Shown here piece after piece: positions 806 through 28,555 of a stretch of DNA of 64,000 nt. Source of the stretch: a virus. The translations under genes and the position numbers were made by a program. Where the stretch lies: the IMG/VR virus record IMGVR_UViG_3300023440_000002, positions 44,382-108,381 of that record. One strand, given 5' to 3'. The number at the start of each line of letters is the position of its first letter. Position 1 is the first letter of the stretch. Below the pieces are notes generated by a model. That model was not told the origin of the DNA. It ran no database searches and saw only the letters and a program-made list of their open reading frames with translations.

Positions 806-832
806 TAAAGTTTTTCAGCAAAGATCCGATAG
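806..832 (+). promoter_or_regulatory. sigma-28 (FliA)-type promoter heading array A
   Basis: TAAAGTTT-N11-TCCGATAG versus consensus TAAAGTTT-N11-GCCGATAA; intergenic, directly upstream of array. Confidence 0.75.
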
Positions 833-878
833 GGTGTATGTAAATGGCAAGTAGCTAACCCAATAAGGGAAAACCTAG

Positions 879-1040
879 ATGGAAACTAAATCTATTGCAA
901 GTAAGGTTCACAGGAAGGTTCACGAGCAGATTCGCTGGCAGGTTTTCGGGCAGATTAACTGGGAGATTAGCAACCAGGTTGCCGATCAAATAATCAATCC
1001 AATAATCAATCCAATAAGGGATGATCTAAATGGAAACTAA
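879..1040 (+). CDS. array repeat peptide (53 aa)
   Basis: METKSIAS...NPIRDDLNGN, hand-translated. Confidence 0.75.
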   Translation: METKSIASKVHRKVHEQIRWQVFGQINWEISNQVADQIINPIINPIRDDLNGN

Positions 1041-1263
1041 AGATATTACAAAAGATGTTCGCCAGCAGGTTTACGAGCAGGTTCGCCAGGAGGTTTACGA
1101 GCAGGTTAACCGGCAGGTTCGCTGGAAGGTTGACGAGCAGATTCACTGGCAAATTCGAGATCAGGTTTACCGGCAGGTTCGCTGGCAGATTAACTGGCAG
1201 ATTAGCGATCAGGTTAACTGACAAATAACTGAACCAATAAAGGATAACCTAGATGAAAGCTAA
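1030..1263 (+). pseudogene. array unit with in-frame TGA (1219-1221) at a Trp-type position
   Basis: ...QVN*QITEPIKDNLDES*; frame intact to the family stop. Confidence 0.65.
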
Positions 1264-1378
1264 AGATATCACAAAAGAGGTTTACCGGCAGGTTCGCTGG
1301 CCGATTCTCGAGCAGGTTGCCGATCAAATAATCAATCCAATAATCAATCCAATAAGGGAAAACCTAAATGGAAGCTAA
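1253..1378 (+). CDS. array repeat peptide (41 aa)
   Basis: MKAKDITKEV...NPIRENLNGS. Confidence 0.7.
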   Translation: MKAKDITKEVYRQVRWPILEQVADQIINPIINPIRENLNGS

Positions 1379-1538
1379 AGTTATTACAAATATAACCGAT
1401 AAGATTTACAGTCAGGTTCTCAACCAGGTTAGCGACCGGATTCACGAGCAGCTTTACTGGGAGATTTACGGGCAGGTCCACGACCAGGTTCTCGGGCAAA
1501 TATCTGACCCAATAGAGGAAAACCTAGATGGAAGCTAA
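1368..1538 (+). CDS. array repeat peptide (56 aa) with embedded sigma-28 motif
   Basis: MEAKVITNITDKIY...DPIEENLDGS. Confidence 0.75.
   Translation: MEAKVITNITDKIYSQVLNQVSDRIHEQLYWEIYGQVHDQVLGQISDPIEENLDGS
1376..1402 (+). promoter_or_regulatory. sigma-28-type promoter inside array unit
   Basis: TAAAGTTA-N11-ACCGATAA. Confidence 0.65.
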
Positions 1539-1713
1539 AGTTATTACTAATAATATTTACGACCAGGTTCGCCAGAAGATTAAACAGCAGATTTTCGAGC
1601 AAGTTTATTGGCAAGTTAGCTTGCAGGTTCGCTGGTATATTAGCGATCAGATTAACCAGCAGGTTCGCGAGCAAATAGCCACCCCAATAAGGGAAAATCT
1701 AAGTGGAAACTGA
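1528..1713 (+). CDS. array repeat peptide (61 aa)
   Basis: ORF track; family caps. Confidence 0.75.
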   Translation: MEAKVITNNIYDQVRQKIKQQIFEQVYWQVSLQVRWYISDQINQQVREQIATPIRENLSGN

Positions 1714-1816
1714 AGATATTACAAAAGAGGTTCGCCGGCATATTGTCAAGCAGATTAACTTGCAGGTTCGCGATCAAGTAACTAATCCAATATGGACTGA
1801 TCTAAATGGAAACTAA
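1703..1816 (+). CDS. array repeat peptide (37 aa, GTG start)
   Basis: (M)ETEDITKEV...NPIWTDLNGN. Confidence 0.65.
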   Translation: METEDITKEVRRHIVKQINLQVRDQVTNPIWTDLNGN

Positions 1817-2012
1817 AGACGTTACAAATACAGCCGATCAGTCCCGCCGGCAGGTTCGCTGGAAGGTTGCCGATCAGGTTTTCGACCAGGTTAATGATCA
1901 GGTTAATGATCAGGTTTACTGGCAGATTAACTGGGAGATTAGCAACCAGGTTGCCGATCAAATAATCAATCCAATAATCAATCCAATAAGGGATGATCTA
2001 AATGGAAACTAA
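1806..2012 (+). CDS. array repeat peptide (68 aa)
   Basis: ORF track; near-identical to 2542..2748; TAAAGACG-N11-GCCGATCA at 1814-1840. Confidence 0.75.
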   Translation: METKDVTNTADQSRRQVRWKVADQVFDQVNDQVNDQVYWQINWEISNQVADQIINPIINPIRDDLNGN

Positions 2013-2187
2013 AGATATTACTAATGAGGTTCGCCAGCAGGTTTACTGGGAGATTCACAGTCAGGTTAACTGGCATGTTCGCAACCAGGTTCGCAACCAG
2101 GTTCGCCGGAAGGTTTTCTCGCAGATTTACGAGCAGGTTTTCGGGCAAATAACTAACCCAATAAAGGAAGATCTAGATGGAAACTGA
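2002..2187 (+). CDS. array repeat peptide (61 aa)
   Basis: ORF track; family caps. Confidence 0.75.
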   Translation: METKDITNEVRQQVYWEIHSQVNWHVRNQVRNQVRRKVFSQIYEQVFGQITNPIKEDLDGN

Positions 2188-2347
2188 AGATGTTACAGAT
2201 AAGATTTACTATCGAATTACCGGACAGGTCCGCAATCAGGTTGAGTGGCAGGTTCGCAGGCAGGTTCGTGACCAGATTATTGACCAGATTTACGACCAGA
2301 TTGACGAACAAATAGTTATCCCAATAAAGGAAAATCTAAATGACTGA
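2177..2347 (+). CDS. array repeat peptide (56 aa)
   Basis: METEDVTDKIY...IPIKENLND. Confidence 0.7.
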   Translation: METEDVTDKIYYRITGQVRNQVEWQVRRQVRDQIIDQIYDQIDEQIVIPIKENLND

Positions 2348-2552
2348 AGCTAAAGTTATTAAAAATAAGATTTACCGGCAGATTCGCGGCCAGATTTGCC
2401 GGCAGATTAACCGGCAGATTCGCTGGCAGACTCGCAGTCAGATTTGCCGGCAGATTAACTGGGATATTCGCGATCAGGTTCGCATTCAGATTTACGATCA
2501 GGCTAATGATCAAATATTTAATCCAATAAGGGATGATCTAAATGGAAACTAA
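2340..2552 (+). CDS. array repeat peptide (70 aa)
   Basis: ORF track; family caps. Confidence 0.75.
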   Translation: MTEAKVIKNKIYRQIRGQICRQINRQIRWQTRSQICRQINWDIRDQVRIQIYDQANDQIFNPIRDDLNGN

Positions 2553-2748
2553 AGATATTACAAATACAGCCGATCAGTCCCGCCGGCAGGTTCGCTGGAA
2601 GGTTGCCGATCAGATTTTCGACCAGGTTAATGATCAGGTTTACTGGCAGGTTTTCGGGCAGATTAACTGGGAGATTAGCAACCAGGTTGCCGATCAAATA
2701 ATCAATCCAATAATCAATCCAATAAGGGATGACCTAAATGGAAACTAA
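2542..2748 (+). CDS. array repeat peptide (68 aa)
   Basis: ORF track; TAAAGATA-N11-GCCGATCA at 2550-2576. Confidence 0.75.
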   Translation: METKDITNTADQSRRQVRWKVADQIFDQVNDQVYWQVFGQINWEISNQVADQIINPIINPIRDDLNGN

Positions 2749-2911
2749 AGATATTGCAAAAGAGATTCACGAGCAGGTTTACGAGCAGGTTTGCGACCAG
2801 GTTAGCGAGCAGGTTCGCCGGCAGGTTCGCCGGCAGGTTTACTGTCAGATTGGCGACCAGACTTACTGGCAAGTAACTAACCCAATAAGGGATGACCTAA
2901 ATGGAAACTGA
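2738..2911 (+). CDS. array repeat peptide (57 aa)
   Basis: METKDIAKEIHEQV...NPIRDDLNGN. Confidence 0.7.
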   Translation: METKDIAKEIHEQVYEQVCDQVSEQVRRQVRRQVYCQIGDQTYWQVTNPIRDDLNGN

Positions 2912-3113
2912 AGATATTGCAAAAGAGATTCACGAGCAGGTTGGCGAGCAGATTCGCCGGCAACTTTACGAGCAGGTTAACCGGCAGGTTCGCTGGAAGG
3001 TTGACGAGCAGATTTACTGGAAGGTTCGCTGGCAGATTCTCAACCAGGTTTCCGAGCAAATTACCAATCAGATTATCTGACAGATTCAAAACCCAATAAG
3101 GGATAACCCCTAA
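2901..3113 (+). pseudogene. last unit of array A, in-frame TGA at 3078-3080
   Basis: ...NQII*QIQNPIRDNP*. Confidence 0.6.
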
Positions 3114-3135
3114 ATAAACTAAGAAAGGAACTATT

Positions 3136-3784: not shown

Positions 3785-6010
3785 ATGACTAAATACGAAC
3801 AATTCAGACAATACATCGCCCAATTCCTCCAAGGCCCTAACGTAGAAGCGATACTTAATAGTTTAGCAGACGATTCAACTAAACTAGAAAACCTATCGAG
3901 ATCCGTAACAGACCAGCTAACCATATCGACAGCCTCAAGTGTTTACTTAGATAAAAGACTAGCTGACAAAGGAATAACTCGCCCACCAGAACTAGGCATG
4001 TCTGACATATCATTCCGTAAGATGGGAATACAAATAACTGCGGCTAAGCAACTAACTGGATTAATCCATACGATACTGGGCACTTTCTATGGTGAAGAAG
4101 CAGTAAGGGCTAACCTGAAGAATACTAAGACAGGACCTTACAACCTAGAAGAAGGAATGGAACTAGAGTTCGAACTAGAGGATGGTATTACTAGGGTGGT
4201 ATCATTCAAAAACACAGACTTCATAAACATCAACCAAGCTACGGCATCAGAGGTAGCATCAGTAATAACACGATTCATAAGAACACAGAACTTAGGAGCT
4301 TTTGCTAGTACAGTAAAGGACTTAAACACAGGCTTAGAGTTCATAAAGTTGTTCGGTGGAGCTGCGGGGCCATACTCAACAGTGACAGTCACAGGAGGCG
4401 AAGCTAATACAATCCTGCAATTTCCTAATATTAGAGGAACCGAGCTGTTAGTTAATGATACAGCATGGGAGATTACCCGTACCGTAGGCAGCACATTACG
4501 GTTCAGATGGGCAGGCAATTCCAAACCGGCATTAGACTTGATATTTCCAACCGACCGCGTAATGATTTACGGGCAAAGTTTTGAGTCTATTGGACTGGCC
4601 GGAACTTTTATTGTCTCAAACGTACGACCTCCACTGATCGGCCCAGACCTAGACGCAGGGTGGTTCGAGATAGAAGTCCCTGCTTTCAGTGGCTTACGTT
4701 CTACTCAGCCTGGCACAACACCCCCAACTAACGTACCACCCGACACTATCTATTCTTATACCATAGTTCAAGCCAACTGGGAAGAGCTAATGTTCATGAA
4801 GCCAGTCAAAGCTTTACCTAACCGCCAGGTGCGTTACGCCTTAGGTTGGGAGCCTAGAGGTGATTTGCTGCGAATTTATATGCCGGCAACAACTGGTATT
4901 GTCTCTAGGGGGATTGAAGGTGCAGCACACTTACATTCGCTTTACGAGGACGGTAATCTGGATGGGGCTTTCGGCTCTGTTACGGATCTTGACTCCGCAG
5001 TGGAAGTTATCTCAGATCGCATTATACGATACCGCCAACTAGGTTACGATAATCACGCTACGGGAGGAGTATTGTCTTGGGGTGGTAATGACTACGAAAT
5101 CGATTATGTCCGGCGTGAGCAATTCACCTCTACCGTATTTTTGAATGAGCCCCACGGATTGCCGGTAGTGCAAGATTCTTTCGGGCGCGACGTTTCTTTG
5201 GAAGTGGTATCTGTTGTGGTGGATATTATGCAGACAGACGATTTAGAATTCAAATCCCCCTATATGGTTGACCTAGGTAAGAACTACACCGTCAGGTCTG
5301 AGTTTGTTACTTCTCGCGCTAAGGTGTTTGCGGGTTCCACCCTGTCCACTTTGGATGTGGATGGTATTTTACCTAATGAGCCAGGGGTATTATTGTTCGA
5401 CTTAAACACCGACAAAGAAGAAGGCCCTATTCGTTATGTTGGGGTTCAGGCTCAAAACGCCCCTAACGTGGTGAATATAGTGACTATTTCCCAAAACGGG
5501 CTGAATGTTACCATTACCACAGATGCTCCTCACGGCGCTACTAGTGGCAGCAACATAGTAATATCAGGTACAACTTTCTTTGATGGGGTGTATCCCGTAG
5601 TGGGCGTACCTAACCCGACTACCATCCAAGCGATTTCCACTGTCGTCCAGGTGGAGAATGAGGTTGGGGTAGGTAGCTTGTCTGTTGTGGTGGATAATGT
5701 TCGGTCTACGTTGCTGCTCGACCCTAGCAATGAATTCAAGTTTGATCATGAAATAGGAGCTGACTTAACTTTGATGTCTTCTAGGAATGCCTACCAGCCT
5801 GCCTTAGATGGCTCAGATTACCCGTTCTACGTTACTGGGGTAGCTGAGGGTAGAGTTTTCGCTGCGGACGTCATAGAGGCTATTACGGCGTTAGGGATTA
5901 ATATCGAAATATTGATCGTCTACCCAAGCGATAAAGGCCTAGGCAACGAAGGAGGTTCAGATGGTAATGAAACCCCTGTGTCAGATAAAGTTACGGTTTG
6001 GGGTGTTTAA
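3785..6010 (+). CDS. putative baseplate wedge/tail structural protein
   Basis: 741 aa; N-terminal 'TISTASSVYLDKRLADKGITRP...DISFRK' resembles baseplate wedge (gpI/DUF2612-like) N-termini; beta-rich body with 'TITTDAPHG...IVISGT' module also repeated in the 1717-aa tail protein. Confidence 0.6.
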   Translation: MTKYEQFRQYIAQFLQGPNVEAILNSLADDSTKLENLSRSVTDQLTISTASSVYLDKRLADKGITRPPELGMSDISFRKMGIQITAAKQLTGLIHTILGTFYGEEAVRANLKNTKTGPYNLEEGMELEFELEDGITRVVSFKNTDFININQATASEVASVITRFIRTQNLGAFASTVKDLNTGLEFIKLFGGAAGPYSTVTVTGGEANTILQFPNIRGTELLVNDTAWEITRTVGSTLRFRWAGNSKPALDLIFPTDRVMIYGQSFESIGLAGTFIVSNVRPPLIGPDLDAGWFEIEVPAFSGLRSTQPGTTPPTNVPPDTIYSYTIVQANWEELMFMKPVKALPNRQVRYALGWEPRGDLLRIYMPATTGIVSRGIEGAAHLHSLYEDGNLDGAFGSVTDLDSAVEVISDRIIRYRQLGYDNHATGGVLSWGGNDYEIDYVRREQFTSTVFLNEPHGLPVVQDSFGRDVSLEVVSVVVDIMQTDDLEFKSPYMVDLGKNYTVRSEFVTSRAKVFAGSTLSTLDVDGILPNEPGVLLFDLNTDKEEGPIRYVGVQAQNAPNVVNIVTISQNGLNVTITTDAPHGATSGSNIVISGTTFFDGVYPVVGVPNPTTIQAISTVVQVENEVGVGSLSVVVDNVRSTLLLDPSNEFKFDHEIGADLTLMSSRNAYQPALDGSDYPFYVTGVAEGRVFAADVIEAITALGINIEILIVYPSDKGLGNEGGSDGNETPVSDKVTVWGV

Positions 6011-6170
6011 GATCTCCCCTTATCAGGTTAGCTACTTGCCAGCTAACCTGCCAGTGAACCCGGTTGCTAGTCTGACGTTGAATATGCCAGTAAACCTGTC
6101 CGCTAACCTGCTCGTAAACCTGCCGGTAAATCTGCTCGCGAATCTTATTAGCAATATCATTAGTTTTCAT
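5991..6170 (-). CDS. array repeat peptide (terminal unit; overlaps baseplate gene end)
   Basis: MKTNDIANK...NLIRGDLKHPKP. Confidence 0.7.
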   Translation of the reverse strand: MKTNDIANKIREQIYRQVYEQVSGQVYWHIQRQTSNRVHWQVSWQVANLIRGDLKHPKP

Positions 6171-6357
6171 CGATATCATCCTTTATTTGGTTAGCTACTT
6201 GCCAGCTAATCTGCTCGAGAATCGGCCAGCGAACCTGCCTTCTAATCTTATTGCTAACCTGCCAGCGGACCTGCCAGTGAACCTGCCAGATAACCTGCCA
6301 GTAAATCTGCTCGCGAACCTGCTGGCGAATCTCTTTTGCAATATCATTAGTTTCCAC
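6160..6357 (-). CDS. array repeat peptide
   Basis: ORF track. Confidence 0.75.
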   Translation of the reverse strand: METNDIAKEIRQQVREQIYWQVIWQVHWQVRWQVSNKIRRQVRWPILEQISWQVANQIKDDIDEN

Positions 6358-6520
6358 TTAGGTCGCTCCATATTGGATCAGTTATTTGCAGGCGAACCTG
6401 CTCGCAAGCCTGCCGGTGAACCTGCCATCCAACCTGCCAGCTAACCTGCTCGATAACCTGCTCGAGAATCTGCTCGTAAATCTGCTCGCGAATCTTACTT
6501 GTAATATCATTAGTTTCCAT
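6347..6520 (-). CDS. array repeat peptide (57 aa)
   Basis: hand-translated, open frame. Confidence 0.7.
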   Translation of the reverse strand: METNDITSKIREQIYEQILEQVIEQVSWQVGWQVHRQACEQVRLQITDPIWSDLSGN

Positions 6521-6707
6521 TCAGATTATCCCTTATTGGGTTGGCTATTTGCTGGCCAACTTGGTCGATAATCCGGTCGCTAACCTGCCGGTAAACCTGC
6601 TCGATAACCTTCCAGTAAACCTGGTCGTCAATCTGCTCGAGAATATGCCAGCAAACCTGATCGTAAACCTCCTGGCGAATCTCTTTTGCAATATCATTAG
6701 TTTCCAC
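6510..6707 (-). CDS. array repeat peptide
   Basis: ORF track. Confidence 0.75.
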   Translation of the reverse strand: METNDIAKEIRQEVYDQVCWHILEQIDDQVYWKVIEQVYRQVSDRIIDQVGQQIANPIRDNLNGN

Positions 6708-6891
6708 TTAGGTCGCTCCATATTGGGTTGGCTATTTGCTCTTGAACCTGCCAGTAAACCTGGTCGTTAACCTTCCAGTAAACCTGTCCGCTAACCTGCT
6801 CGTAAACCTGTCGGTAAATCTGCTCGCGAACCTGATCGATAACCTGCCCTCGAACCTGCTGGCGAATCTCTTTTGCAATATCTTCAGTCAT
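6697..6891 (-). CDS. array repeat peptide
   Basis: ORF track, start MTED. Confidence 0.75.
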   Translation of the reverse strand: MTEDIAKEIRQQVRGQVIDQVREQIYRQVYEQVSGQVYWKVNDQVYWQVQEQIANPIWSDLSGN

Positions 6892-7018
6892 ATAGATCAT
6901 CCTTGATTGGATTAGCTACTTGCAGGCGAACCTGCTCGTAAACCCGCCAGTTAATCTGGTCGTCAATATGGCCGTAAATCTTCCAGCGAATTTCTTTTGT
7001 AATACCTTTAGCTTTCAT
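6884..7018 (-). CDS. array repeat peptide (44 aa)
   Basis: hand-translated, open frame. Confidence 0.7.
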   Translation of the reverse strand: MKAKGITKEIRWKIYGHIDDQINWRVYEQVRLQVANPIKDDLYD

Positions 7019-7193
7019 TAAGGTTATCCTTTATTGGGTTAGCTATTTGATCGAAAACCTGGTCGATAACCTGCCCGCTAACCTGGTCGTCAATCTGCTC
7101 GAGAATATGCCAATAAGCCTGGTCGTTAACCTGCCCCAGAACCTGCTGGCGAACCTGCCAACGAACCTCATTAGTAATAACTTTAGCTTTCAT
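7008..7193 (-). CDS. array repeat peptide
   Basis: ORF track. Confidence 0.75.
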   Translation of the reverse strand: MKAKVITNEVRWQVRQQVLGQVNDQAYWHILEQIDDQVSGQVIDQVFDQIANPIKDNLNES

Positions 7194-7341
7194 CTAGGTC
7201 GCTCCATATTGGATCAGTTATTTGCAGGCGAACCTGGTCTCGAATCTCCCAGTGAACCTGCTCGATAACCTGCAAGTTAATTTGCTTGACAATATGCAGG
7301 TAAGCCTTCCAGCTAATCTCTTTTGCAATATCTTCAGTCAT
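7183..7341 (-). CDS. array repeat peptide (52 aa)
   Basis: hand-translated, open frame. Confidence 0.7.
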   Translation of the reverse strand: MTEDIAKEISWKAYLHIVKQINLQVIEQVHWEIRDQVRLQITDPIWSDLDES

Positions 7342-7525
7342 TTAGGTTTTCCTTTATTGGGTTAGTTATTTGCCAGCTAACCTGCTCGAGAATCTGCCAA
7401 TTAACCTGCTCGATAACCTGCCAGTAAACCTGTTCGATAACCTGCCGGCGGATCTGGTTGCGAACCTGCCCGCTAACCTGGTCGTCAATCTGACAGTAAA
7501 CTTGCCAGCTAATATCTTCAGTCAT
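7334..7525 (-). CDS. array repeat peptide
   Basis: ORF track. Confidence 0.75.
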   Translation of the reverse strand: MTEDISWQVYCQIDDQVSGQVRNQIRRQVIEQVYWQVIEQVNWQILEQVSWQITNPIKENLND

Positions 7526-7700
7526 TTAGGTTATCCTTTATTGGGTCAGATATTTGATCATGAACCTGCCATCCAATCTGCCATCCAATCTGCCGGAAAA
7601 CCTGCCAGTAAACCTGTCGGCGAACCTTCCAGAGAGCTTGGTCGTTAACCTGATCATTAACCTGCCGGTGAACATCTTTTGCAATATCTTCAGTTTCCAT
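7518..7700 (-). CDS. array repeat peptide
   Basis: ORF track. Confidence 0.75.
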   Translation of the reverse strand: METEDIAKDVHRQVNDQVNDQALWKVRRQVYWQVFRQIGWQIGWQVHDQISDPIKDNLND

Positions 7701-7851
7701 TTAGGTTATCCTTTATTGGGTCAGATATTTGATCATGAACCTGCCATCCAATCTGCCATCCAATCTGCCGGAGAGCCTGGTCGTTAATCTGCCAGTAAAT
7801 CTGTTGGTGAATCTGCTGGTGAATCTCATTAGTAATATCTTTAGCTTTCAT
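7690..7851 (-). CDS. array repeat peptide (53 aa)
   Basis: hand-translated, open frame. Confidence 0.7.
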   Translation of the reverse strand: MKAKDITNEIHQQIHQQIYWQINDQALRQIGWQIGWQVHDQISDPIKDNLNGN

Positions 7852-8002
7852 CTAGGTCTTCCCATATTGGATTAGCTATTTGCTCGAAAACCTGCTCGTA
7901 AACCTGCCGGCGAACCTGGTCGTAAACCTGCCCGCGAATCTGCCAGTAAATCTCCCAGTAAACCTGCCAGTTAACCTCTTTTGTGATATCTTCAGATTCC
8001 AT
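7841..8002 (-). CDS. array repeat peptide (53 aa)
   Basis: hand-translated, open frame. Confidence 0.7.
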   Translation of the reverse strand: MESEDITKEVNWQVYWEIYWQIRGQVYDQVRRQVYEQVFEQIANPIWEDLDES

Positions 8003-8213
8003 TTAGATCTACCTTTATTGGGGTGGCTATTTGATTGCGAACCTGCTCGTAAACCTGCCGGCGAACCTGGTCGCAAACCTGCCCGCGAATCTGCCAGTAA
8101 ATCTCCCAGTAAACCTGATCATTAATCTGCCAGTGAAGCTTCCAGTGAACCTGGCCGTTAATCTGCTCTCGAACCTGCTGGCGAATCTCATTAGTAATAT
8201 CTTCAGCTTTCAT
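7992..8213 (-). CDS. array repeat peptide
   Basis: ORF track. Confidence 0.75.
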   Translation of the reverse strand: MKAEDITNEIRQQVREQINGQVHWKLHWQINDQVYWEIYWQIRGQVCDQVRRQVYEQVRNQIATPIKVDLNGI

Positions 8214-8325
8214 CTAGGTCATCCATTATTGGGGTGGCTATTTGATTGCGAACCTGGTCGCTAACCTGCCGACCTTACTTTACATAAACCTTATCGGTTA
8301 TGTCTGTAATAACTTTAGCTTTCAC
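8203..8325 (-). pseudogene. promoter-type array unit (stop at codon 17)
   Basis: (M)KAKVITDITDKVYVK*; carries TAAAGTTA-N11-ACCGATAA at 8291-8317. Confidence 0.7.
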
Positions 8326-8500
8326 TTAGGTCTCCACCTATTAGGTTACGAACCTGCCGGCGAACCTGCCAGTGAACCGGCAGGTTAATTTGCTCGACAA
8401 TATGCAAGTAAGTCTTCCAGCTAGTCTGCTGGTTAACCTGCTGATGGATCTTCCAGTGAATCTGCCGGCGAATCTCTTTTGTAGTATCTTTAGTTTCCAT
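8315..8500 (-). CDS. array repeat peptide
   Basis: ORF track. Confidence 0.75.
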   Translation of the reverse strand: METKDTTKEIRRQIHWKIHQQVNQQTSWKTYLHIVEQINLPVHWQVRRQVRNLIGGDLSES

Positions 8501-8612
8501 TGAGATTTTCCTTTATTGGGTCAGTTATTTGATTGCGAGCTTGATCGTCAATTTGCCGACCTTACTTTACATAAACCTTATCGGCTATATCTGTAATAAC
8601 TTTAGTTTCCAT
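8490..8612 (-). pseudogene. promoter-type array unit (stop at codon 17)
   Basis: METKVITDIADKVYVK*; carries TAAAGTTA-N11-GCCGATAA at 8578-8604. Confidence 0.7.
8578..8604 (-). promoter_or_regulatory. near-consensus sigma-28 promoter inside array
   Basis: TAAAGTTA-N11-GCCGATAA (one mismatch to consensus). Confidence 0.75.
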
Positions 8613-8787
8613 GCAGATCTTCCCTTATTGGTTCAGTTATTTGCCCATGAACCTGGTCGTGAACTTGCCAGTTAATTTGATCGAGAATCTGGCCGTGAAC
8701 CTGGTCGCCAATCTGCTGATAAACACCCCGGCTAATCTGATCATTAATCTGCTGGTGAATCTTACCTATAATATCTTCAGTTTTCAT
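8602..8787 (-). CDS. array repeat peptide
   Basis: ORF track. Confidence 0.75.
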   Translation of the reverse strand: MKTEDIIGKIHQQINDQISRGVYQQIGDQVHGQILDQINWQVHDQVHGQITEPIREDLHGN

Positions 8788-8962
8788 TAAGATCTTCCCA
8801 TATTGGGTCAGTTATTTGCAGGCGAACCTCCCAGTAAGTCTGGTCGCCAATCTGCCAGTAAACCTGCCGGCGAACCTGCTCGAGAACATGGCCGCGAATC
8901 TGATGGTAAATCTCCCAATCAACCTGCCAGTGAATCTTACTTGTAATATCTTTAGTTTTCAT
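8777..8962 (-). CDS. array repeat peptide
   Basis: ORF track. Confidence 0.75.
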   Translation of the reverse strand: MKTKDITSKIHWQVDWEIYHQIRGHVLEQVRRQVYWQIGDQTYWEVRLQITDPIWEDLNEN

Positions 8963-9125
8963 TTAGGTCTACCTTTATTGGAGAGGTTGTTTGCCAGCGA
9001 ACCTGCATATCAACCTGATCTAGAATCTGCCGCTGAATCTGCCAGCGAACCTGATAGTGAACCTGATCTCGAATTTGCCAGTAAATCTGCCAGTTAACCT
9101 CTTTTGTAATATCTTTAGTTTTCAT
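8952..9125 (-). CDS. array repeat peptide
   Basis: ORF track, start MKTK. Confidence 0.75.
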   Translation of the reverse strand: MKTKDITKEVNWQIYWQIRDQVHYQVRWQIQRQILDQVDMQVRWQTTSPIKVDLNEN

Positions 9126-9408
9126 CGAGGTCATCCTTTATTGGGTCGGATATTTGATTGTAAACCTGATTGTGAACCTGATCTAGAATCTGCCAGTAAG
9201 CCTGCCAGTAAGTCTGCCCGCTAGCCTGGCCTTTAATACGCTCGAGAATCTGGCCGTGAACCTCCCAGTGAACCTGATCGTAAATATGCCCGCTAGCCTG
9301 CTGGCCAACCTGATTGGTAATTTGATCGTCAACCTGCTCGTCAACCTGCCAGTAAATCTGTTGACTAATCTGATTATGTACCTTGTCGGCTATATCTTTA
9401 GTTTTCAT
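9115..9408 (-). CDS. array repeat peptide (97 aa, longest unit)
   Basis: ORF track. Confidence 0.8.
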   Translation of the reverse strand: MKTKDIADKVHNQISQQIYWQVDEQVDDQITNQVGQQASGHIYDQVHWEVHGQILERIKGQASGQTYWQAYWQILDQVHNQVYNQISDPIKDDLDEN

Positions 9409-9607
9409 TTAGGTCATCCTTTATTGGGTTAGCTACTTGCTGGTGAACCTGCTCGTGAACCCGCCAGTAAACCTCCTCGTAAGTCTCCTCGTAAACCTCC
9501 CAATAAACACAATCGTAAAGATGCTTGCTAACCTTATCGAGAATCTGATTGCGAACCTGCCAGTGAATCTCATCGTGAATCTTACCTGTAATACCATCAG
9601 CTTCCAT
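9398..9607 (-). CDS. array repeat peptide
   Basis: ORF track. Confidence 0.75.
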   Translation of the reverse strand: MEADGITGKIHDEIHWQVRNQILDKVSKHLYDCVYWEVYEETYEEVYWRVHEQVHQQVANPIKDDLNEN

Positions 9608-9770
9608 CTAAGTCTTCCTTTATTGGGATGGTTATTTGCCAGCGAATCTGATCGCGAACATGCCAGTTAACCTTCCAGCGAACCTGCTCGAGAATCTCCC
9701 AGTCAACCTGCTCGCTAACCTTCCAGCGAATCTGACTGTAAATCTTACTTGCTATATCTTCAATTTTCAT
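9597..9770 (-). CDS. array repeat peptide (57 aa)
   Basis: hand-translated, open frame. Confidence 0.7.
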   Translation of the reverse strand: MKIEDIASKIYSQIRWKVSEQVDWEILEQVRWKVNWHVRDQIRWQITIPIKEDLDGS

Positions 9771-9981
9771 TTAGGTCATCCTTTATTGGGTCGGATATTT
9801 GATTGTAAGCCTGCTCGTGAACATGCTGGCGAACCTGCCGGTTAACCTGCTCGTAAACCTCCCAGCTAACCTGGTCGCAAATCTGCTCGAAAACCTGGTC
9901 GCGAATCTCCCAGTGAATACCCCAATGAACCTGGTCGTAAACCTGCGAGCGAACATCTTTTGTAATATCTTTAGTTTTCAT
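9760..9981 (-). CDS. array repeat peptide
   Basis: ORF track, start MKTK. Confidence 0.75.
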   Translation of the reverse strand: MKTKDITKDVRSQVYDQVHWGIHWEIRDQVFEQICDQVSWEVYEQVNRQVRQHVHEQAYNQISDPIKDDLNEN

Positions 9982-10156
9982 CGAGGTCATCCTTTATTGG
10001 AGAGGTTGTTTGCCGGCGAACCTTACCGTGAATCAGCCAATTAACCTGTTCGCGAATCTGACTGTAAACCTGCCAGTGAACCTGCTCGTAAATCTGCCAG
10101 TGAGCGTGACTGACAATTCGATTGTGAATTTTGTCGGCTATATCTTTAGTTTTCAT
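9971..10156 (-). CDS. array repeat peptide
   Basis: ORF track, start MKTK. Confidence 0.75.
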   Translation of the reverse strand: MKTKDIADKIHNRIVSHAHWQIYEQVHWQVYSQIREQVNWLIHGKVRRQTTSPIKDDLDEN

Positions 10157-10331
10157 CGAGGTCATCCTTTATTGGGTTAGCTACTTGCTCGTGAACCTGA
10201 TTGTGAACCTGATCTAGAATCTGCTCGCTAATCTGCTTGCGAACCTCCCAGTAAGCCTCCCAGCGAATACCCCAATGAACCTGGTCGTAAACCTGCTTAT
10301 AAACCTTATTTGCGGCAATTTTAGCTTCCAT
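10146..10331 (-). CDS. array repeat peptide
   Basis: ORF track. Confidence 0.75.
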   Translation of the reverse strand: MEAKIAANKVYKQVYDQVHWGIRWEAYWEVRKQISEQILDQVHNQVHEQVANPIKDDLDEN

Positions 10332-10494
10332 TTAGTTCATCCCTTATTGGGTTGGCTATTTGATTTCGAATTTGCCTATGAATCTGCTTGCGAACCTCCC
10401 AGTAAACCTCCCAGCGAACCTGCAAGTTAATCTGCTTGACAATATGCAGGTAAACCTCCCAGCTAATCTCTTTTGTAATATCATTAGTTTCCAT
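10321..10494 (-). CDS. array repeat peptide (57 aa)
   Basis: hand-translated, open frame. Confidence 0.7.
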   Translation of the reverse strand: METNDITKEISWEVYLHIVKQINLQVRWEVYWEVRKQIHRQIRNQIANPIRDELNGS

Positions 10495-10657
10495 CTAGAT
10501 CTTCCTTTATTGGGTTAAGTATTTGATCACGAATCTGCCAGTTAACCCTCGAGTAAGCCCTCCAATAAACCAAATAATCAACCTGCTCGCGAACTTGCCA
10601 GTAAATCTTCCGGTAAACCTGCTGGCGAATCTCATTAGTAATATCTTCAATTTCCAT
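10484..10657 (-). CDS. array repeat peptide (57 aa)
   Basis: hand-translated, open frame. Confidence 0.7.
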   Translation of the reverse strand: MEIEDITNEIRQQVYRKIYWQVREQVDYLVYWRAYSRVNWQIRDQILNPIKEDLDGN

Positions 10658-10832
10658 TTAGGTCTTCCCATATTGGATCAACTCCTTGCTCACGAACTTG
10701 AGCGTAAATCTGCCAGTAAATCTGCCAGCGAACCTTCCGGTTAACTTTCTCGTGAATATGATTGATAGTCTGCCGGCGAATCTGCTGGCGAACCTGGTCG
10801 TGAATCTCTTTTGTAATATCTTCAGTTTCCAT
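10647..10832 (-). CDS. array repeat peptide
   Basis: ORF track. Confidence 0.75.
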   Translation of the reverse strand: METEDITKEIHDQVRQQIRRQTINHIHEKVNRKVRWQIYWQIYAQVREQGVDPIWEDLNGN

Positions 10833-11007
10833 TTAGGTCATTCCTTATTGGGTCGATTATCTGTACGTGAACCTGCCAGCGAACATGCAAGCGAACATGC
10901 TCGAGAATCTTCCAGTAGGGGTTCCGGCCAACCTGATCAACGACCTGCTCTCGAACCTGGTCGTAAACCTGCTTATAAACCTTATTTGCGGCAACTTTAG
11001 CTTTCAT
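10822..11007 (-). CDS. array repeat peptide
   Basis: ORF track. Confidence 0.75.
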   Translation of the reverse strand: MKAKVAANKVYKQVYDQVREQVVDQVGRNPYWKILEHVRLHVRWQVHVQIIDPIRNDLNGN

Positions 11008-11179
11008 TTAGATCTTCCTTTATTGGGATAACTATTTGCCCGCGAATTTGATCGTTAATCTGCTCGTTAATCTGTTCGCGAACCTGCCCTCGAACCTGCC
11101 AATAAGTCTGCCAGTCAACCTTCCAACTAATCTCGCTACACACCTTATCGGTTATACCTGTAATAACTTTAGCTTTCAT
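10997..11179 (-). CDS. array repeat peptide with embedded sigma-28 motif
   Basis: ORF track; TAAAGTTA-N11-ACCGATAA at 11145-11171. Confidence 0.75.
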   Translation of the reverse strand: MKAKVITGITDKVCSEISWKVDWQTYWQVRGQVREQINEQINDQIRGQIVIPIKEDLNES

Positions 11180-11191
11180 TTAGATCTTCCT

Positions 11192-11734
11192 TTATTCGCT
11201 CAAATACACAGCACCATCAACAAAACCCGGAGCTATCTTGTCCAGGTACTCTCTATTCATATAGGTTTGGTTCTTGATTAGTTCTTTATAATTCGGAGGG
11301 TTAAATATCTTATTGATCTCTTTATGAATAAAAACATTATCTTTAATTGTCTTTTTAGAATCTTCCATTGTTACAATACATCGAGACGGACAATAATAAT
11401 ACAAGTTATGCATCATCATTGTTGCTTTTGGCGTTAAGTGCCTGGTATCACACAAGGTTGAAATATAAAAGGCCATACTTAGGGCTTTCTTAATCAGGCA
11501 ATGAACTTTAAACCCTCTCTTTTTAATGTCCTGAATTGAAGCCCCTAGCTGAAAAAAAGGCGTAACCGGCCCTCCAGGACTGTCAATTGTTAAATAAACA
11601 TCCCGATGGGTCAACCTAATATAAACTGCCAACGCAGATGCCGACATAGAATCGGTAAGCTTTAGTTTAGATACTTCACTAGCTGAAACCTGACTAGGCA
11701 ACAGGATCATTAAAATTAAAAGTAAGTATTTCAT
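11192..11734 (-). CDS. ClpP-like (S14) serine peptidase with signal peptide
   Basis: IDSPGG, catalytic Ser in ALSMA, His in MMMH; hydrophobic leader MKYLLLILMILLPSQVSA; RBS AAGGAA. Confidence 0.75.
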   Translation of the reverse strand: MKYLLLILMILLPSQVSASEVSKLKLTDSMSASALAVYIRLTHRDVYLTIDSPGGPVTPFFQLGASIQDIKKRGFKVHCLIKKALSMAFYISTLCDTRHLTPKATMMMHNLYYYCPSRCIVTMEDSKKTIKDNVFIHKEINKIFNPPNYKELIKNQTYMNREYLDKIAPGFVDGAVYLSE

Positions 11735-11748
11735 ATTGTTCCTTTCTG

Positions 11749-11811
11749 TTAGGGTTTAATCTCTATTCCATTAACCTTATCGGCTATATCTGCAATATCT
11801 TTAGTTTCCAT
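11749..11811 (-). pseudogene. truncated promoter-type unit upstream of ClpP-like gene
   Basis: METKDIADIADKVNGIEIKP*; TAAAGATA-N11-GCCGATAA at 11777-11803. Confidence 0.65.
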
Positions 11812-17828: not shown

Positions 17829-18041
17829 TTATGATTTGCTGCAACAGTCGCCTGCTTGCTGGTATGTGTAGTATTTAAGTTCGCACTCTTTGCATTGATG
17901 GTTTTTTGGTTGAGCTTTTCCGTCCGAGATAGTGTATTTGTATGGCACATTGCTCATTTTAAGCATCTGCACCAGATCTTCTGCGTGCTCTCTTTCGTCG
18001 AATTGCTCGGTTCGACCTTGAAATATAACTAAATGAGGCAT
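17829..18041 (-). CDS. hypothetical protein, C-terminal Cys motif
   Basis: RBS AAGGAA; CKEC...CC. Confidence 0.6.
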   Translation of the reverse strand: MPHLVIFQGRTEQFDEREHAEDLVQMLKMSNVPYKYTISDGKAQPKNHQCKECELKYYTYQQAGDCCSKS

Positions 18042-18063: not shown

Positions 18064-18091
18064 TTATCGGTTGTTTTTGGCTAAATCTTTA
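18064..18091 (-). promoter_or_regulatory. sigma-28-type promoter
   Basis: TAAAGATT-N12-ACCGATAA overlapping end of upstream CDS. Confidence 0.55.
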
Positions 18092-18542: not shown

Positions 18543-18905
18543 CTAATCTCCGTAAACTGACGAACTACTGAAGAAAAAATCCCGCATCTTTTCTTTTTCG
18601 GTTGGTTCGTTTTCTGACTCTGTGAAGCCCTCTACGGCTTGGAACTGACTGGAATCAGCTCTTCTTATTAAGTCCATAAAGGTCGAATAAGTTACTTCTG
18701 GTTTGGGGCATGTCGAAAAATAATCATCGATGTTTCGACTTATTATGTCGAAACCTTCATCGGCCGCATTGACTTCTAGCCAAGCCCCCAAAGAAGGAGC
18801 TATCACTCTAACGTGATCTAAATCTTTCGTTAGTTCTTTAATTTGACCTATTCTTTCTGGCGCTGACAAAACAGACAGCCAAACCTTGCATTCTTTCATT
18901 TTCAT
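18543..18905 (-). CDS. hypothetical protein
   Basis: ORF track; C-terminus identical to 19390..19773. Confidence 0.65.
   Translation of the reverse strand: MKMKECKVWLSVLSAPERIGQIKELTKDLDHVRVIAPSLGAWLEVNAADEGFDIISRNIDDYFSTCPKPEVTYSTFMDLIRRADSSQFQAVEGFTESENEPTEKEKMRDFFFSSSSVYGD
18544..18603. repeat. 60-bp direct repeat, copy 1 (copy 2 at 19391-19450)
   Basis: exact match, encodes TEKEKMRDFFFSSSSVYGD. Confidence 0.9.
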
Positions 18906-19099
18906 TGTCCGTTTACCATCCCAATCACAATCATAGCTAAAAGGTTCATCTCAATCAAAACAAAAACAATAATCAGAGTAGCTCCGATATCTTCCAGTAG
19001 CTTTACCATTTTAGGGTTATCTTCCTTTCGAGCTTTAACCCAAAGACGAGATAACATATAGAGACATATTACGATGATAATAAAAACTATAAACATCAC
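18902..19099 (-). CDS. small membrane protein
   Basis: two hydrophobic segments; RBS AAGGAG. Confidence 0.6.
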   Translation of the reverse strand: MMFIVFIIIVICLYMLSRLWVKARKEDNPKMVKLLEDIGATLIIVFVLIEMNLLAMIVIGMVNGQ

Positions 19100-19115: not shown

Positions 19116-19143
19116 TTATCGGGTGTTCGGTGAGAAAACTTTA
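19116..19143 (-). promoter_or_regulatory. sigma-28-type promoter
   Basis: TAAAGTTT-N12-CCCGATAA, intergenic. Confidence 0.7.
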
Positions 19144-19925: not shown

Positions 19926-20786
19926 TTAATCATAGCTTTTAATTCCTATTTCATTCCCGGATCTAAACTCTAGGGCTTTATATAGCTCCACAACTTCCGG
20001 GGTTTTTAAGCAAAGTTCGCTAACTTTAAGTTGATCAATACTCAACCCTAGGTTTATGTGGGTTTTAATATCAACCAAAGATTTAGATAAATACGCATTA
20101 TCTTTACCTTTAATTAGGTTCGCAGGTAACGCATTACCTTTAATGTTGGTGATGTTTTGGTAAACTCCATCCAATGTTCCGAACTCATTCAGCAAAGCAG
20201 AAGCTTTTTTTGCCCCCACTCCTTTCACTCCTGGCACATTATCGGCAGCATCACCCATTAAAGATAAATAATCGATCATTTGATTGGCTTCGATACCCAA
20301 CTTGAGATTAACCCCTTCAGCTCCAACGAAAGGCTTATCTGTCCACCCTAATGATACGTTAGGGTGGTCGAGGAGCTGCATGAAGTCCTTATCTGAGGAT
20401 AGAATACCAACCTCTGCGTCGTCTTGAAAGAACCTTACAGCCGACCCTATGACGTCATCAGCCTCAAACCCCTTGCATTCAATCAAATGAATACCCATAC
20501 GCTTGAACATATCGTAATAGTCTGGAATCTGCTCTAGGAATTCTGGATCTTTCGGCTTCCGTCCCGCCTTATATTCCGGATACATATCGTGTCTGAAGGT
20601 AGGGCCTGGGGCGTCGGTTACCGCCAAGAAATGGGTGGGTTTTATTAGCTGGAAAACATCCACCATGAAGTTTCTAGCTCCGAAAACCATACCGGTATGT
20701 CTACCTTTGGAGTTCATTAGTTCTTTATGAACCCAATAGCATTTATGTGCCAGGTTCATTACGTCCAATATTAACAACTTAGTCAT
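19926..20786 (-). CDS. 5'-3' exonuclease / flap endonuclease (Pol I N-terminal, T4 RNase H-like)
   Basis: LILD, FRH..YPEYKAGR, EADDVIG, SSDKDFMQL, GDAADNVPGVKGVGAKKA (H3TH). Confidence 0.92.
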   Translation of the reverse strand: MTKLLILDVMNLAHKCYWVHKELMNSKGRHTGMVFGARNFMVDVFQLIKPTHFLAVTDAPGPTFRHDMYPEYKAGRKPKDPEFLEQIPDYYDMFKRMGIHLIECKGFEADDVIGSAVRFFQDDAEVGILSSDKDFMQLLDHPNVSLGWTDKPFVGAEGVNLKLGIEANQMIDYLSLMGDAADNVPGVKGVGAKKASALLNEFGTLDGVYQNITNIKGNALPANLIKGKDNAYLSKSLVDIKTHINLGLSIDQLKVSELCLKTPEVVELYKALEFRSGNEIGIKSYD

Positions 20787-22954: not shown

Positions 22955-22981
22955 TTATCGGTTGTTTAATATAAAACTTTA
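22955..22981 (-). promoter_or_regulatory. sigma-28-type promoter
   Basis: TAAAGTTT-N11-ACCGATAA, intergenic. Confidence 0.8.
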
Positions 22982-25679: not shown

Positions 25680-25693
25680 TTTCTCTCCTAAAA

Positions 25694-25792
25694 AATTAAA
25701 AATAGGCGTGATTGCCAAGATTAGTACTATTATCGGTTTATTTTCAAATAACTTTAGCGGTTTCTTATTATTTCTTCTACACCCTCAAAAGA
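25694..25792. repeat. 99-bp perfect direct repeat, copy 1 (copy 2 at 27127-27225)
   Basis: exact match; contains sigma-28 motif. Confidence 0.92.
25730..25756 (-). promoter_or_regulatory. sigma-28-type promoter
   Basis: TAAAGTTA-N11-ACCGATAA. Confidence 0.75.
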
Positions 25793-26293
25793 TACGGAAC
25801 AGCAGTGAGATGTTTCGCACTTAGGGCATGCATTCTCAATAGATATGTATTCCCCACTTACTGAATCTTCTATTGTTCCGTCTATCAGTTCGGAATAGTC
25901 GAAAGTGGATTTACAATCAAAACACTTAACTTTTTTGGGTAGATATTCATACAGCCATTTCGGTTCCGGGGCCATAGACGTAAATACCTCATGAGGAGTA
26001 TTTACTTCATAATCCCGCAAATTATATGCTTCCAACCCCTTCAGTTCAGTTTCAGTTAGCGGCCTACTTAAAACAACAACACATGTTTTATTTTTTGACC
26101 AGGTTTTTTGATAATCCACTTTCCAGCACATTATGGCACCTATGGAGCCTAAACCTAAAGGTAAGGCCTCTTCAGGGTTACAGTCTAAAGTTAATGTTAC
26201 CGTAGTTCTACCGCTAGGAACCAAATATTGCGTTTCTCCTGCATCAGGATTCTTCTTTATGGAAGACTTCCTGATTTTTACTAAATACATCAT
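25754..26293 (-). CDS. hypothetical protein with C-terminal zinc finger
   Basis: CFDC...CPKC. Confidence 0.6.
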   Translation of the reverse strand: MMYLVKIRKSSIKKNPDAGETQYLVPSGRTTVTLTLDCNPEEALPLGLGSIGAIMCWKVDYQKTWSKNKTCVVVLSRPLTETELKGLEAYNLRDYEVNTPHEVFTSMAPEPKWLYEYLPKKVKCFDCKSTFDYSELIDGTIEDSVSGEYISIENACPKCETSHCCSVSFEGVEEIIRNR

Positions 26294-27111
26294 TGATTCA
26301 TGACACTACGAACAAACTTAAAGATTTGCCCAGAAGCCCCTTTCGTAATTGCTTTGATTTCATCTTTGCTGCCTTTAATTTCGCCCTCATCGACAAGGTC
26401 TTTAGTGTATTGCTTAACAATTAAACCTAAAGATTTAGGGAAGTTGCGGGTAAGAGCTTCATCTTTCGAAACCACCTTTTCTAATCTGATCGGCTGGCAA
26501 AGGTGAGAGTAATCAACCACAACTCGAGATGTTTTAGTTTTTTTGTTTTTATCTCCACCAGTCCATTTGGTGCTTTCAGGTTCGAACACTTTTTTGTATC
26601 TTTGTCCGCCAATCATAACCACAACACCTTCGACCCGCATAAAACCTTCAGCTCCTTCAACTTTAGATCCGCTAGTTTTAAGGGTTTCAGCTACTGTATT
26701 AATCATTGAACTAGATATGTCGTTTCCGTCGTAAAGTACCGGCACTGTACCTATGCGTTCTGGTAAAGACCTTTCGTATCTCCACCAGTCAAACAACAAA
26801 AACCTTCTCTCTTTTAGACCTTCGCCAGAATTCACCCCTAAGCCACACCATTCACCGTCATGGCGACCTAAGCCTAACTTTTCGACAATCTCATCCTTGT
26901 TGCTGTAACAAAAAGAGGCGAACCCATAATTGTCGTTTTCTGGTGTTATGAATCTATTTCTAGAACCGCAAAGTAGGCCCTTAGATCCGTCTTCATTTTC
27001 GAATACTAGAATATGAGCATTAGTTCCATGGATCTTCTGAGTTATAGTCATCCGAAGATCTCTGAGTTGTTTTATTTTCTTGAAAGACTTGAATTCTAAA
27101 GACATAAACAC
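26290..27111 (-). CDS. RNA ligase 2 (Rnl2)-family nucleotidyltransferase
   Basis: QKIHGTN (motif I), GEW, FLLFD, EGVV, YKK; C-terminal IRLEKVVSK. Confidence 0.8.
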   Translation of the reverse strand: MFMSLEFKSFKKIKQLRDLRMTITQKIHGTNAHILVFENEDGSKGLLCGSRNRFITPENDNYGFASFCYSNKDEIVEKLGLGRHDGEWCGLGVNSGEGLKERRFLLFDWWRYERSLPERIGTVPVLYDGNDISSSMINTVAETLKTSGSKVEGAEGFMRVEGVVVMIGGQRYKKVFEPESTKWTGGDKNKKTKTSRVVVDYSHLCQPIRLEKVVSKDEALTRNFPKSLGLIVKQYTKDLVDEGEIKGSKDEIKAITKGASGQIFKFVRSVMNQ

Positions 27112-27126
27112 CCCCTTAAGGACAAT

Positions 27127-27225
27127 AATTAAAAATAGGCGTGATTGCCAAGATTAGTACTATTATCGGTTTATTTTCAAATAACTTTAGCGGTTTCTTA
27201 TTATTTCTTCTACACCCTCAAAAGA
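27127..27225. repeat. 99-bp perfect direct repeat, copy 2 (sigma-28 motif at 27163-27189, minus strand)
   Basis: exact match to 25694-25792. Confidence 0.92.
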
Positions 27226-27369
27226 AATAAATACCTCCTTAAGGATAATAATTAAAAAAATCGAAAACCATGCCAGTTATGTCGAACTGAACATCTAAAG
27301 CGTGGAATAAAATACAACCGATAAAACAAACAGTCAAGTGAATAACCGCCCCTCCTATAAATTCAGCCA

Positions 27370-27564
27370 TCACGATACCTTCTTTCTTGTTAGGTGGTAA
27401 AGATTACAGTTAGGGCAAAGGTAAGGTTCTTGGTCGCTTTTATATAAATAAAAAGCCAAAACCGCTGCATCCTCTGCCTCTTCTTTTGTTGCTAGAGTTT
27501 TCTTGTTCCAGCACATTTTACTTCTTGCTTTGAACTTATTTGATTTCTTCCTAAAACCAGACAC
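27370..27564 (-). CDS. small zinc-finger protein
   Basis: C..K...YLCPNCNLYHLT; RBS GGAGG. Confidence 0.65.
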   Translation of the reverse strand: MSGFRKKSNKFKARSKMCWNKKTLATKEEAEDAAVLAFYLYKSDQEPYLCPNCNLYHLTRKKVS

Positions 27565-27597
27565 TTTAACCTCCTAGCTGTCCTTATAATGTTAAGT

Positions 27598-28311
27598 TTA
27601 GTACACTGAGGGTGTTTTATTTATGTAGTTTACGCTAAAAATATCCATAGATGGCCATAAAATACCCGAAAGCTTCCTTCCATGGCTAGTATCTACACAA
27701 ACTGCAAACTTTTCTTTGTTTTTGGTGAAAAAACGCACGTTTTTCATTGCATTATGGCCATGAAATTGCATATTCACCCCCTTTATTGGAGTAGGTGCCC
27801 CTCTATTCCAACAAAGACTGTAATCCTCCATGGTGTTTACTTTTTTTAGTTTTTCAAATCCATAAACAGGATTGATAGGTGCATGGGTAATGATGATTTT
27901 ACCGAAATTGTCTTCATGTTCAATAAACAGCGGAAGCCGATTAAGGAACTTAATGTGTTTTTTTGGGATTAAATCTACCCCACCATAAGAGTCTACAGTG
28001 CTAAACCCCCCATTGCCTTTCCATACACCCCAGTTGTATTTTTCGTTGTATTTCGGTAAGAAGCCCTCATTATGACCATTAACGAAATCTCGCATTAAGT
28101 CTTCGTGGTTTCCTAAAATAGCTTTTGCGTCTTTTTCAGCAGAAAAGAATTCTAAAACCTTGTTAGATTCGCTACCCCTGTCAACCATATCCCCTACAGA
28201 TACGACAGTAAAATCCCCACAAGCTTTTCTTGCCATATCCATAAGCATCTCTAGTTCGGTAAACCGACCAGCAATATCACCTATTATTAGTATGTTATCT
28301 TTCACTTTCAC
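27598..28311 (-). CDS. metallophosphoesterase (Ser/Thr phosphatase / ApaH-like)
   Basis: GDIAG, GDMVDRG, GNHE, THA, HGH, VDT. Confidence 0.85.
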   Translation of the reverse strand: MKVKDNILIIGDIAGRFTELEMLMDMARKACGDFTVVSVGDMVDRGSESNKVLEFFSAEKDAKAILGNHEDLMRDFVNGHNEGFLPKYNEKYNWGVWKGNGGFSTVDSYGGVDLIPKKHIKFLNRLPLFIEHEDNFGKIIITHAPINPVYGFEKLKKVNTMEDYSLCWNRGAPTPIKGVNMQFHGHNAMKNVRFFTKNKEKFAVCVDTSHGRKLSGILWPSMDIFSVNYINKTPSVY

Positions 28312-28555
28312 CTTCCTTGTAGATAGTCGCCGCGCCATCTATGGTTTCATGTGGCACAGTAGAACCTCTACTATACCTATCGGTTTTTTTGTTAGAAACT
28401 TTAATGTTATTTTCTTTTATTGCTGAATTGTACCCTGCATAAAAACCCTGAGTGTAAGCTGTTTCGATATCTTCAAAACCTACATTCGCGATAACTCGCT
28501 TCCAGGCATCACACGATTTGATCCATAACCACATCTTAAATTTATTTTTTGACAC
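28295..28555 (-). CDS. hypothetical protein
   Basis: ORF track. Confidence 0.5.
   Translation of the reverse strand: MSKNKFKMWLWIKSCDAWKRVIANVGFEDIETAYTQGFYAGYNSAIKENNIKVSNKKTDRYSRGSTVPHETIDGAATIYKEGESER
28377..28403 (-). promoter_or_regulatory. sigma-28-type promoter
   Basis: TAAAGTTT-N11-ACCGATAG upstream of the phosphoesterase. Confidence 0.65.

Follow-up and report, generated by a model that had tools for sequence, protein, structure and literature searches.

The 64-kilobase (kb) stretch analysed here, hereafter the window, corresponds to bases 44382-108381 of the viral record IMGVR_UViG_3300023440_000002 (108,381 base pairs, CheckV completeness 68%). It includes part of a 32-kb accessory block, extending from record position 40.8 kb to window position 28.4 kb, that is headed by sites resembling sigma-28-type promoters. 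The block contains two convergent arrays, at 879-3080 on the plus strand and 5991-13564 on the minus strand, of about 55 mini-genes encoding 41-97 amino acids (aa), together with a set of nucleic-acid enzymes (positions are those of the window unless given as record positions). The plus-strand array begins behind a site at 806 and the convergent minus-strand array behind a site at 14277. Among the other genes behind such sites are those for a calcineurin-like phosphoesterase, an RNA-ligase-like protein, an L5 gp82-like protein, an SNase-like nuclease, a ClpP-like protein and a DUF6745 protein, and a 5'-3' exonuclease gene (19926-20786) lies inside the transcription unit headed by the site at 22955. 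No transfer RNA genes were found in the 64-kb window.

The strict pattern TAAAGWTW-N11/12-CCGATAR matched 11 times in the window, against 0.01 matches expected, and none of 100 shuffles reached this number. With a weight matrix built from the sites we obtained 18 matches of at least 12 bits in the 108-kb record versus 0-1 in 20 shuffles, a comparison with shuffled controls that the initial annotation of this stretch had proposed. Adding three N12-spaced sites to this set brings the total to about 20 sites in the record; four sites beyond those of the initial annotation, found with a looser regular expression, are located upstream of the window, at record 12529(-), 23375(-), 40842(+) and 42841(+). 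Classical sigma-70 -35/-10 matches were not enriched at 14-30 kb, with 36 found and 39.1 expected.

Of 17 sites, 14 have an N11 spacer and three an N12 spacer. As TAAAG and CCGATA themselves were imposed by the search, we judged conservation at the remaining positions of the 14 aligned N11 sites: a C precedes TAAAG in 13, TT(A/T) is kept after it in 13-14, an A follows CCGATA in 12 and a G follows CCGATAA in 11. Only the two boxes are conserved, spacers varying among the non-duplicated sites, and at least ten sites lie in unrelated flanks and share nothing but the boxes. The resulting phage consensus, CTAAAGTT(A/T)TT-N9-(A/G)CCGATAAG, can be compared with that of E. coli sigma-28, TAAAGTTT-n11-GCCGATAA (PMC2859248). 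Both boxes and the 11-nucleotide (nt) spacing fit the class 3 flagellar and chemotaxis promoters of E. coli and Salmonella, in line with the initial classification of the motif as sigma-28-type. The phage motif differs in the first base of the -10 box, which is mostly A, in the conserved C before the -35 box and in the G after the -10 box.

Each of the 17 strict sites points in the direction of the genes that follow it, and most are found 12-80 nt ahead of a start codon that has a ribosome-binding site. The initial annotation had listed eight sites, at 806 (+) and at 14277, 18064, 19116, 22955, 25730, 27163 and 28377 (all -), and seven more inside the arrays. All eight are recovered by a looser regular expression; the sites at 18064 and 19116 have an N12 spacer. 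Within the arrays, those at 1376, 8291, 8578, 11145 and 11777 are exact and those at 1813 and 2549, with GCCGATCA as -10 box, were found with the weight matrix. The claimed agreement between the direction of sites and genes holds for every site, and the claim that they precede runs of small genes does not hold for all of them, the exceptions being 25730 (a 664-677-aa gene), 27163 (RNA ligase) and 28377 (phosphoesterase). Likewise, the region from 29 to 64 kb, where none had been noticed, has no credible site, only a weak intragenic look-alike at 46364 that is missing the G of TAAAG. The sites are confined to the non-structural accessory part of the genome, with two small minus-strand islands of such sites further upstream of the accessory block. 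They look like real promoters of the sigma-28 (FliA/SigD/WhiG) class.

The arrays illustrate how additional promoters could arise. Mini-gene junctions are conserved (CCAATAAAGGAnGAyCTAnATG), with heads reading METKDITKE, and stop codon, ribosome-binding site and start codon overlap there, an arrangement that suggests translational coupling. Nearly all array units start with ATG GAA ACT AAA GAT ATT, that is CTAAAGATATT, a ready-made -35 box, and the array sites correspond to units that also have ACC GAT AAG at codons 10-12, giving the -10 box. The extra in-array promoters would accordingly be made from the mini-genes' own first 12 codons, the head already supplying one box and a few units having gained the other. 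At three of these sites (8291, 8578 and 11777) the mini-gene has decayed to a stump of 16-20 codons, in the array's few gaps, with both boxes perfect, as would be expected if selection acted there on the boxes rather than on the codons. E. coli also has intragenic FliA sites from which the following gene is transcribed (PMC4183435), and the in-array sites resemble them. Inside the minus-strand array, a ClpP-like gene of 180 aa (11192-11734, -) has its own sigma-28-type cassette upstream. A FlgM candidate in the array scored 15.3 bits, below the cut-off, and contained internal stop codons; we regard it as noise.

The same promoter type was found in one relative, G022, with 10 sites versus none in a reversed-pattern control and with a common AGGTTTAnGTAA after the -10 box. 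The two genomes have a collinear core (44 of 179 proteins), and have almost no genes behind the promoters in common; the promoter type thus persists although the genes it serves are exchanged. The slot between the core genes for a 2231-aa and a 156-aa protein measures 33 kb here (record 40.3-73.5 kb, to window 29158) versus 5.6 kb in G022 (21.3-26.9 kb), i.e. the accessory region is strongly expanded in the studied phage relative to its sister. Two closer metagenome relatives, L225 and L229, each have one site on the same strand and in the same slot, left of the gene for a 1717-aa protein. The RNA-ligase-like and phosphoesterase genes behind two of the promoters have no IMG/VR relatives, and footprinting of orthologous promoters was limited to L225 and L229.

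Beyond these close relatives, the distribution of the motif does not follow that of the sigma gene carried by the phage. Among 25 IMG/VR relatives bearing this sigma gene plus Myxococcus phage Mx1 (OR576727.2), 25 of 26 are without the motif, G022 being the only one that has it, so that motif and sigma gene do not co-occur across the family, with the caveat that G022 is the sister of the studied phage. A scan of IMG/VR for the motif returned at least 117 stretches, and among the matches listed at least 14 unrelated viral contigs carry motif clusters (3-16 sites) versus 0-1 in reversed-pattern controls. Sigma70_r2 had no match in these 14 contigs, four of which are 93-100% complete; they include G029, G034, G027, G031 and G032 (loci L119, L146, L116, L114 and L108), and in G029 and G034 all sites lie in the first 9.5 kb of the contig, all forward. 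Three motif-bearing contigs besides the studied phage, compared with cultured phages at the DNA level, gave either nothing or only short matches to Staphylococcus phage records.

The only sigma-like gene in the record, at 49818-50837, forms a helicase-sigma gene pair that is also found in Mx1, the closest cultured relative (sigma 36% identical); in a DNA comparison, the studied phage showed no similarity to cultured phages. The product of the sigma gene is best matched by RpoD-type models, FliA_WhiG being marginal (E=0.026), and its N-terminal ~120 residues are conserved and match no family. A profile of 28 members of this sigma family aligns to residues 363-571 of the 613 residues of E. coli RpoD and then ends, and all 27 members examined, including that of Mx1, end a few residues past the first helix of region 4. 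The family ends before region 4.2 and is thus without the helix-turn-helix that reads the -35 box, whereas the motif, with its strongly conserved -35 box, is not a one-box signal readable by such a sigma factor. Furthermore, the -10-reading region 2.3/2.4 of the phage sigma (FRSTAIGRMTLNM) hardly differs from that of the motif-free relatives G015 and G003. No stand-alone Sigma70_r4, r4_2 or GerE-type piece was found in this record or in G022; in G015 there is an open reading frame (ORF) for a 74-aa GerE-type helix-turn-helix protein. Members of the sigma family are frequent on uncultured contigs of 100-173 kb, the closest sigma relatives having 59-70% identity. In the relative G021 (IMGVR_UViG_3300037424_001778, locus L068), the sigma gene has an insert of ~420 aa in region 2.4 that starts with C, ends with HNF...SN and looks like an intein.

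Two other promoter-like signals occur in the window. TGCTAYAAT, a sigma-70-like extended -10 sequence, is present six times (1.3 expected). It stands ahead of the helicase-sigma and DnaD/GroEL-like operons, the gene for DNA polymerase and others, and is the signal found upstream of the replication genes and of the phage's own sigma gene. CCTAATATW is present eight times (2.0 expected), always on the plus strand, with four copies 14-74 nt before plus-strand genes, three of these four (29077, 29654 and 40814) in the virion zone; in the relative G007, which has no sigma-28 motif, it occurs 20 times forward versus 0 reverse. As CCTAATATT, the signal is on the plus strand in 10 of 10 cases in the record, mostly just before plus-strand genes (window 14305, 29077, 29654, 37015, 40814, 56623 and others), and it is a candidate one-box late promoter.

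From the motif, its enrichment, orientation and placement, and from the truncation of the phage sigma, all of which can be read in the sequence, we infer which sigma factor uses the sites, when they would fire and how they may be linked to host motility. We consider it likely, if some way from certain, that the sites are read by the host RNA polymerase with a putative host factor of the sigma-28 (FliA) family, and not by the truncated phage sigma. A phage sigma without the -35-reading part, motif-free relatives with the same -10 segment and 14 motif-bearing contigs that have no sigma make a host FliA-family sigma the best reading. The initial annotation had connected the sites with host FliA and with motile cells; the evidence favours the former over the phage sigma, and the latter stays tentative, as do its description of the genes as early and its suggestion of a flagellotropic phage or a Bdellovibrionota host. 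Several points weigh against a host factor. The record is only 68% complete, and a sigma-28-like gene or a separate sigma-4 piece could lie in the remainder. The sigma tree pairs the studied phage with G022 as sisters (support 99/98); the motif, being the mark of a single clade, might in principle follow a phage factor specific to that clade, and we accordingly give less weight to the 25 of 26 motif-free genomes as independent evidence against the phage sigma. At its first base the -10 box has A in 10 of 14 sites and G in 3, the E. coli consensus having G, and it would be unusual for a lytic phage to depend on a usually minor sigma factor for a third of its genome.

If a phage-encoded factor did read the sites, be it the truncated sigma, possibly aided by a sigma-4-like partner protein, or a sigma-28-like protein whose gene lies in the missing third, they would form a middle class active after expression of the sigma gene. 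The position of that gene behind a sigma-70-like signal, the restriction of the motif to the clade of the studied phage and G022 on the sigma tree, the incompleteness of the record and the GerE-type ORF of G015 would all fit. However, the strong seven-base -35 box at exact sigma-28 spacing faces a sigma that has no helix-turn-helix to read it and whose -10-reading segment is like that of motif-free relatives. The RpoD-type affinity of this protein, the absence of a sigma-4 or GerE piece from this record and G022, the 14 sigma-free contigs and the availability of a different one-box signal for the phage sigma point the same way, and we find this explanation unlikely. Another alternative retains a host factor of the sigma-28 family but separates it from motility, the factor being a life-stage regulator, as FliA in Bdellovibrio, or the sigma-28 of a non-flagellated host, of which Chlamydia is an example; a restriction to motile cells would then be wrong. 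Such a role has a parallel in the attack-phase promoters of Bdellovibrio bacteriovorus described below, and the host of Mx1 is Myxococcus, which used to be placed with Bdellovibrio in the deltaproteobacteria. Yet the Bdellovibrio consensus has TTAAG and a spacer one base longer, Mx1 has no such sites, and the searches for host clues yielded no host evidence: the contig scan gave only one phage contig, binned in an Elusimicrobia metagenome-assembled genome, and the ThyX homologues gave none, being without organism names. On balance we rate this alternative as rather unlikely. It seems highly improbable that the sites are not promoters at all but regulator-binding sites, or repeats that multiplied as mini-gene heads were duplicated. 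Seven of them do lie in repeated mini-gene heads and two in a duplicated 102-nt cassette, but this does not account for the ten or more sites in unrelated flanks with only two boxes conserved, the strict orientation and placement before ribosome-binding sites, or the occurrence of the same two-box signal before unrelated genes in G022 and in the 14 unrelated contigs.

With a host FliA-family sigma as the favoured reader, transcription of this phage might be divided among three factors. The sigma-28-type sites would head the transcription units of the accessory block and be read via the host FliA-family sigma, the host primary sigma would serve the replication genes and the phage sigma gene through TGCTAYAAT, and the truncated phage sigma would probably read the one-box CCTAATATT before the virion genes. 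We infer this assignment of three signals to three sigma factors from the signals themselves. More tentatively still, and at somewhat less than even chances, the phage may gate about a third of its genome, including the arrays of ~55 variable mini-genes, on a host motility or life-stage sigma. The accessory programme would in that case be restricted to swimming or attack-phase cells, with replication and virion genes on other signals and with in-array boosters derived from mini-gene codons.

Sigma-28-type signals used far beyond flagellar genes have been described in B. bacteriovorus, in which FliA is a global regulator and FliA-type boxes precede 66% of attack-phase promoters (PMC3627812). 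The consensus derived there from mapped 5' ends is TTAAG-N16-CCGATA (PMC3627812), whereas the phage has CTAAAG-N15-CCGATAAG, the E. coli form, the Bdellovibrio spacer being one base longer. TTAAG-N13-17-CCGATA was not found in this record or in G022, and a TTAAG-type -35 variant, sought in 25 genomes, was enriched in none of them. Unlike class 3 promoters, the ~20 phage sites are on a lytic-type genome and before genes with no flagellar link. Recruitment of a host sigma-28 programme by phage DNA has a precedent in the prophage flagellin gene fliC_P, which is expressed via host FliA (bioRxiv 10.1101/2023.11.30.569447). That precedent concerns a single conversion gene of a temperate phage, itself flagellar, whereas here an entire class of promoters is involved, spanning about a third of a large phage genome. 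A literature search of limited coverage turned up no report of a sigma-28 promoter class in lytic phages, fliC_P being the closest precedent.

Phage transcription is usually described as a succession of the host primary sigma and then phage factors. In the SPO1 cascade, host sigma-A is followed by gp28 and then gp33/34, and the late genes of T4 are read by gp55 with gp33. The phage studied here likewise has several promoter classes, among them a one-box signal that a minimal phage sigma probably recognises, but differs in that the extra class fits a host alternative sigma and not a phage sigma. Mx1 has this helicase-sigma pair too, and a sigma truncated in the same way, but is devoid of sigma-28-type sites, with a single loose chance match in 169 kb. 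If our reading is true, a promoter class matched to a host alternative sigma would make gene expression of a lytic phage dependent on the physiological state of the infected cell. The clustering of the same signal in at least 14 unrelated uncultured viral contigs indicates that this may be a common, overlooked strategy. On a practical level, the motif could serve as a host-trait clue for uncultured phages, pointing to hosts with active sigma-28.

Table 1. Promoter-like sites and associated features of the window
Feature	Position	Strand	Score, basis or context
Sigma-28-type promoter, head of plus-strand mini-gene array	806-832	+	32 bits; first gene 879-1040, ATG with ribosome-binding site 47 nt downstream
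In-array sigma-28-type site within codons 3-12 of mini-gene 1368-1538 (MEAKVITNITDK)	1376-1402	+	41.6 bits
In-array near-site, -10 box GCCGATCA (one mismatch)	1813-1841	+	22 bits
In-array near-site, -10 box GCCGATCA (one mismatch)	2549-2577	+	32 bits
In-array promoter cassette, mini-gene head shortened to 16-codon stump, in array gap	8291-8317	-	40 bits
In-array promoter cassette, build as at 8291	8578-8604	-	41 bits
In-array site within first codons of mini-gene 10997-11179	11145-11171	-	39 bits
In-array promoter cassette (20-codon stump) ahead of ClpP-like gene 11192-11734	11777-11803	-	Exact motif
Promoter heading minus-strand array, first gene 13941-14225; adjoins divergent CCTAATATT at 14305	14277-14303	-	Exact motif
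Sigma-28-type promoter, N12 spacer, before 17829-18041 and onward	18064-18091	-	Looser regular expression
Sigma-28-type promoter, N12 spacer, before 18902-19099 and onward	19116-19143	-	Looser regular expression
Sigma-28-type promoter before run of 58-133-aa genes including SNase-like nuclease	22955-22981	-	Motif match
102-nt promoter cassette (motif 25730-25756) before 664-677-aa gene; duplicate of 27124-27225	25691-25792	-	Motif match
102-nt cassette, second copy (motif 27163-27189), before RNA-ligase-like gene 26290-27111	27124-27225	-	Motif match
Sigma-28-type promoter before calcineurin-like phosphoesterase gene 27598-28338	28377-28403	-	Motif match
One-box CCTAATATT example, 31 nt before 1717-aa virion-zone gene	29654-29662	+	Motif search
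Phage sigma factor, 339 aa; regions 2, 3 and first helix of region 4, no region-4.2 helix-turn-helix	49818-50837	-	Profile alignments
Divergent control region, two mirrored TGCTAYAAT (52300 minus, 52441 plus), before helicase-sigma and DnaD/GroEL-like operons	52294-52507		Motif search

The divergent control region consists of two mirrored cassettes, TTATGCCTCATYTCAGAAAAA ... GTGCTTT..TGCTAYAAT, one facing each operon. Opposed signals are also seen at three of the sigma-28-type sites, which adjoin or lie near an oppositely oriented CCTAATAT(T/A) (AATATTAGG-CTAAAG), at record 42831, 58686 (window 14305) and 23419; these neighbours may be divergent promoter pairs or a shared upstream element.

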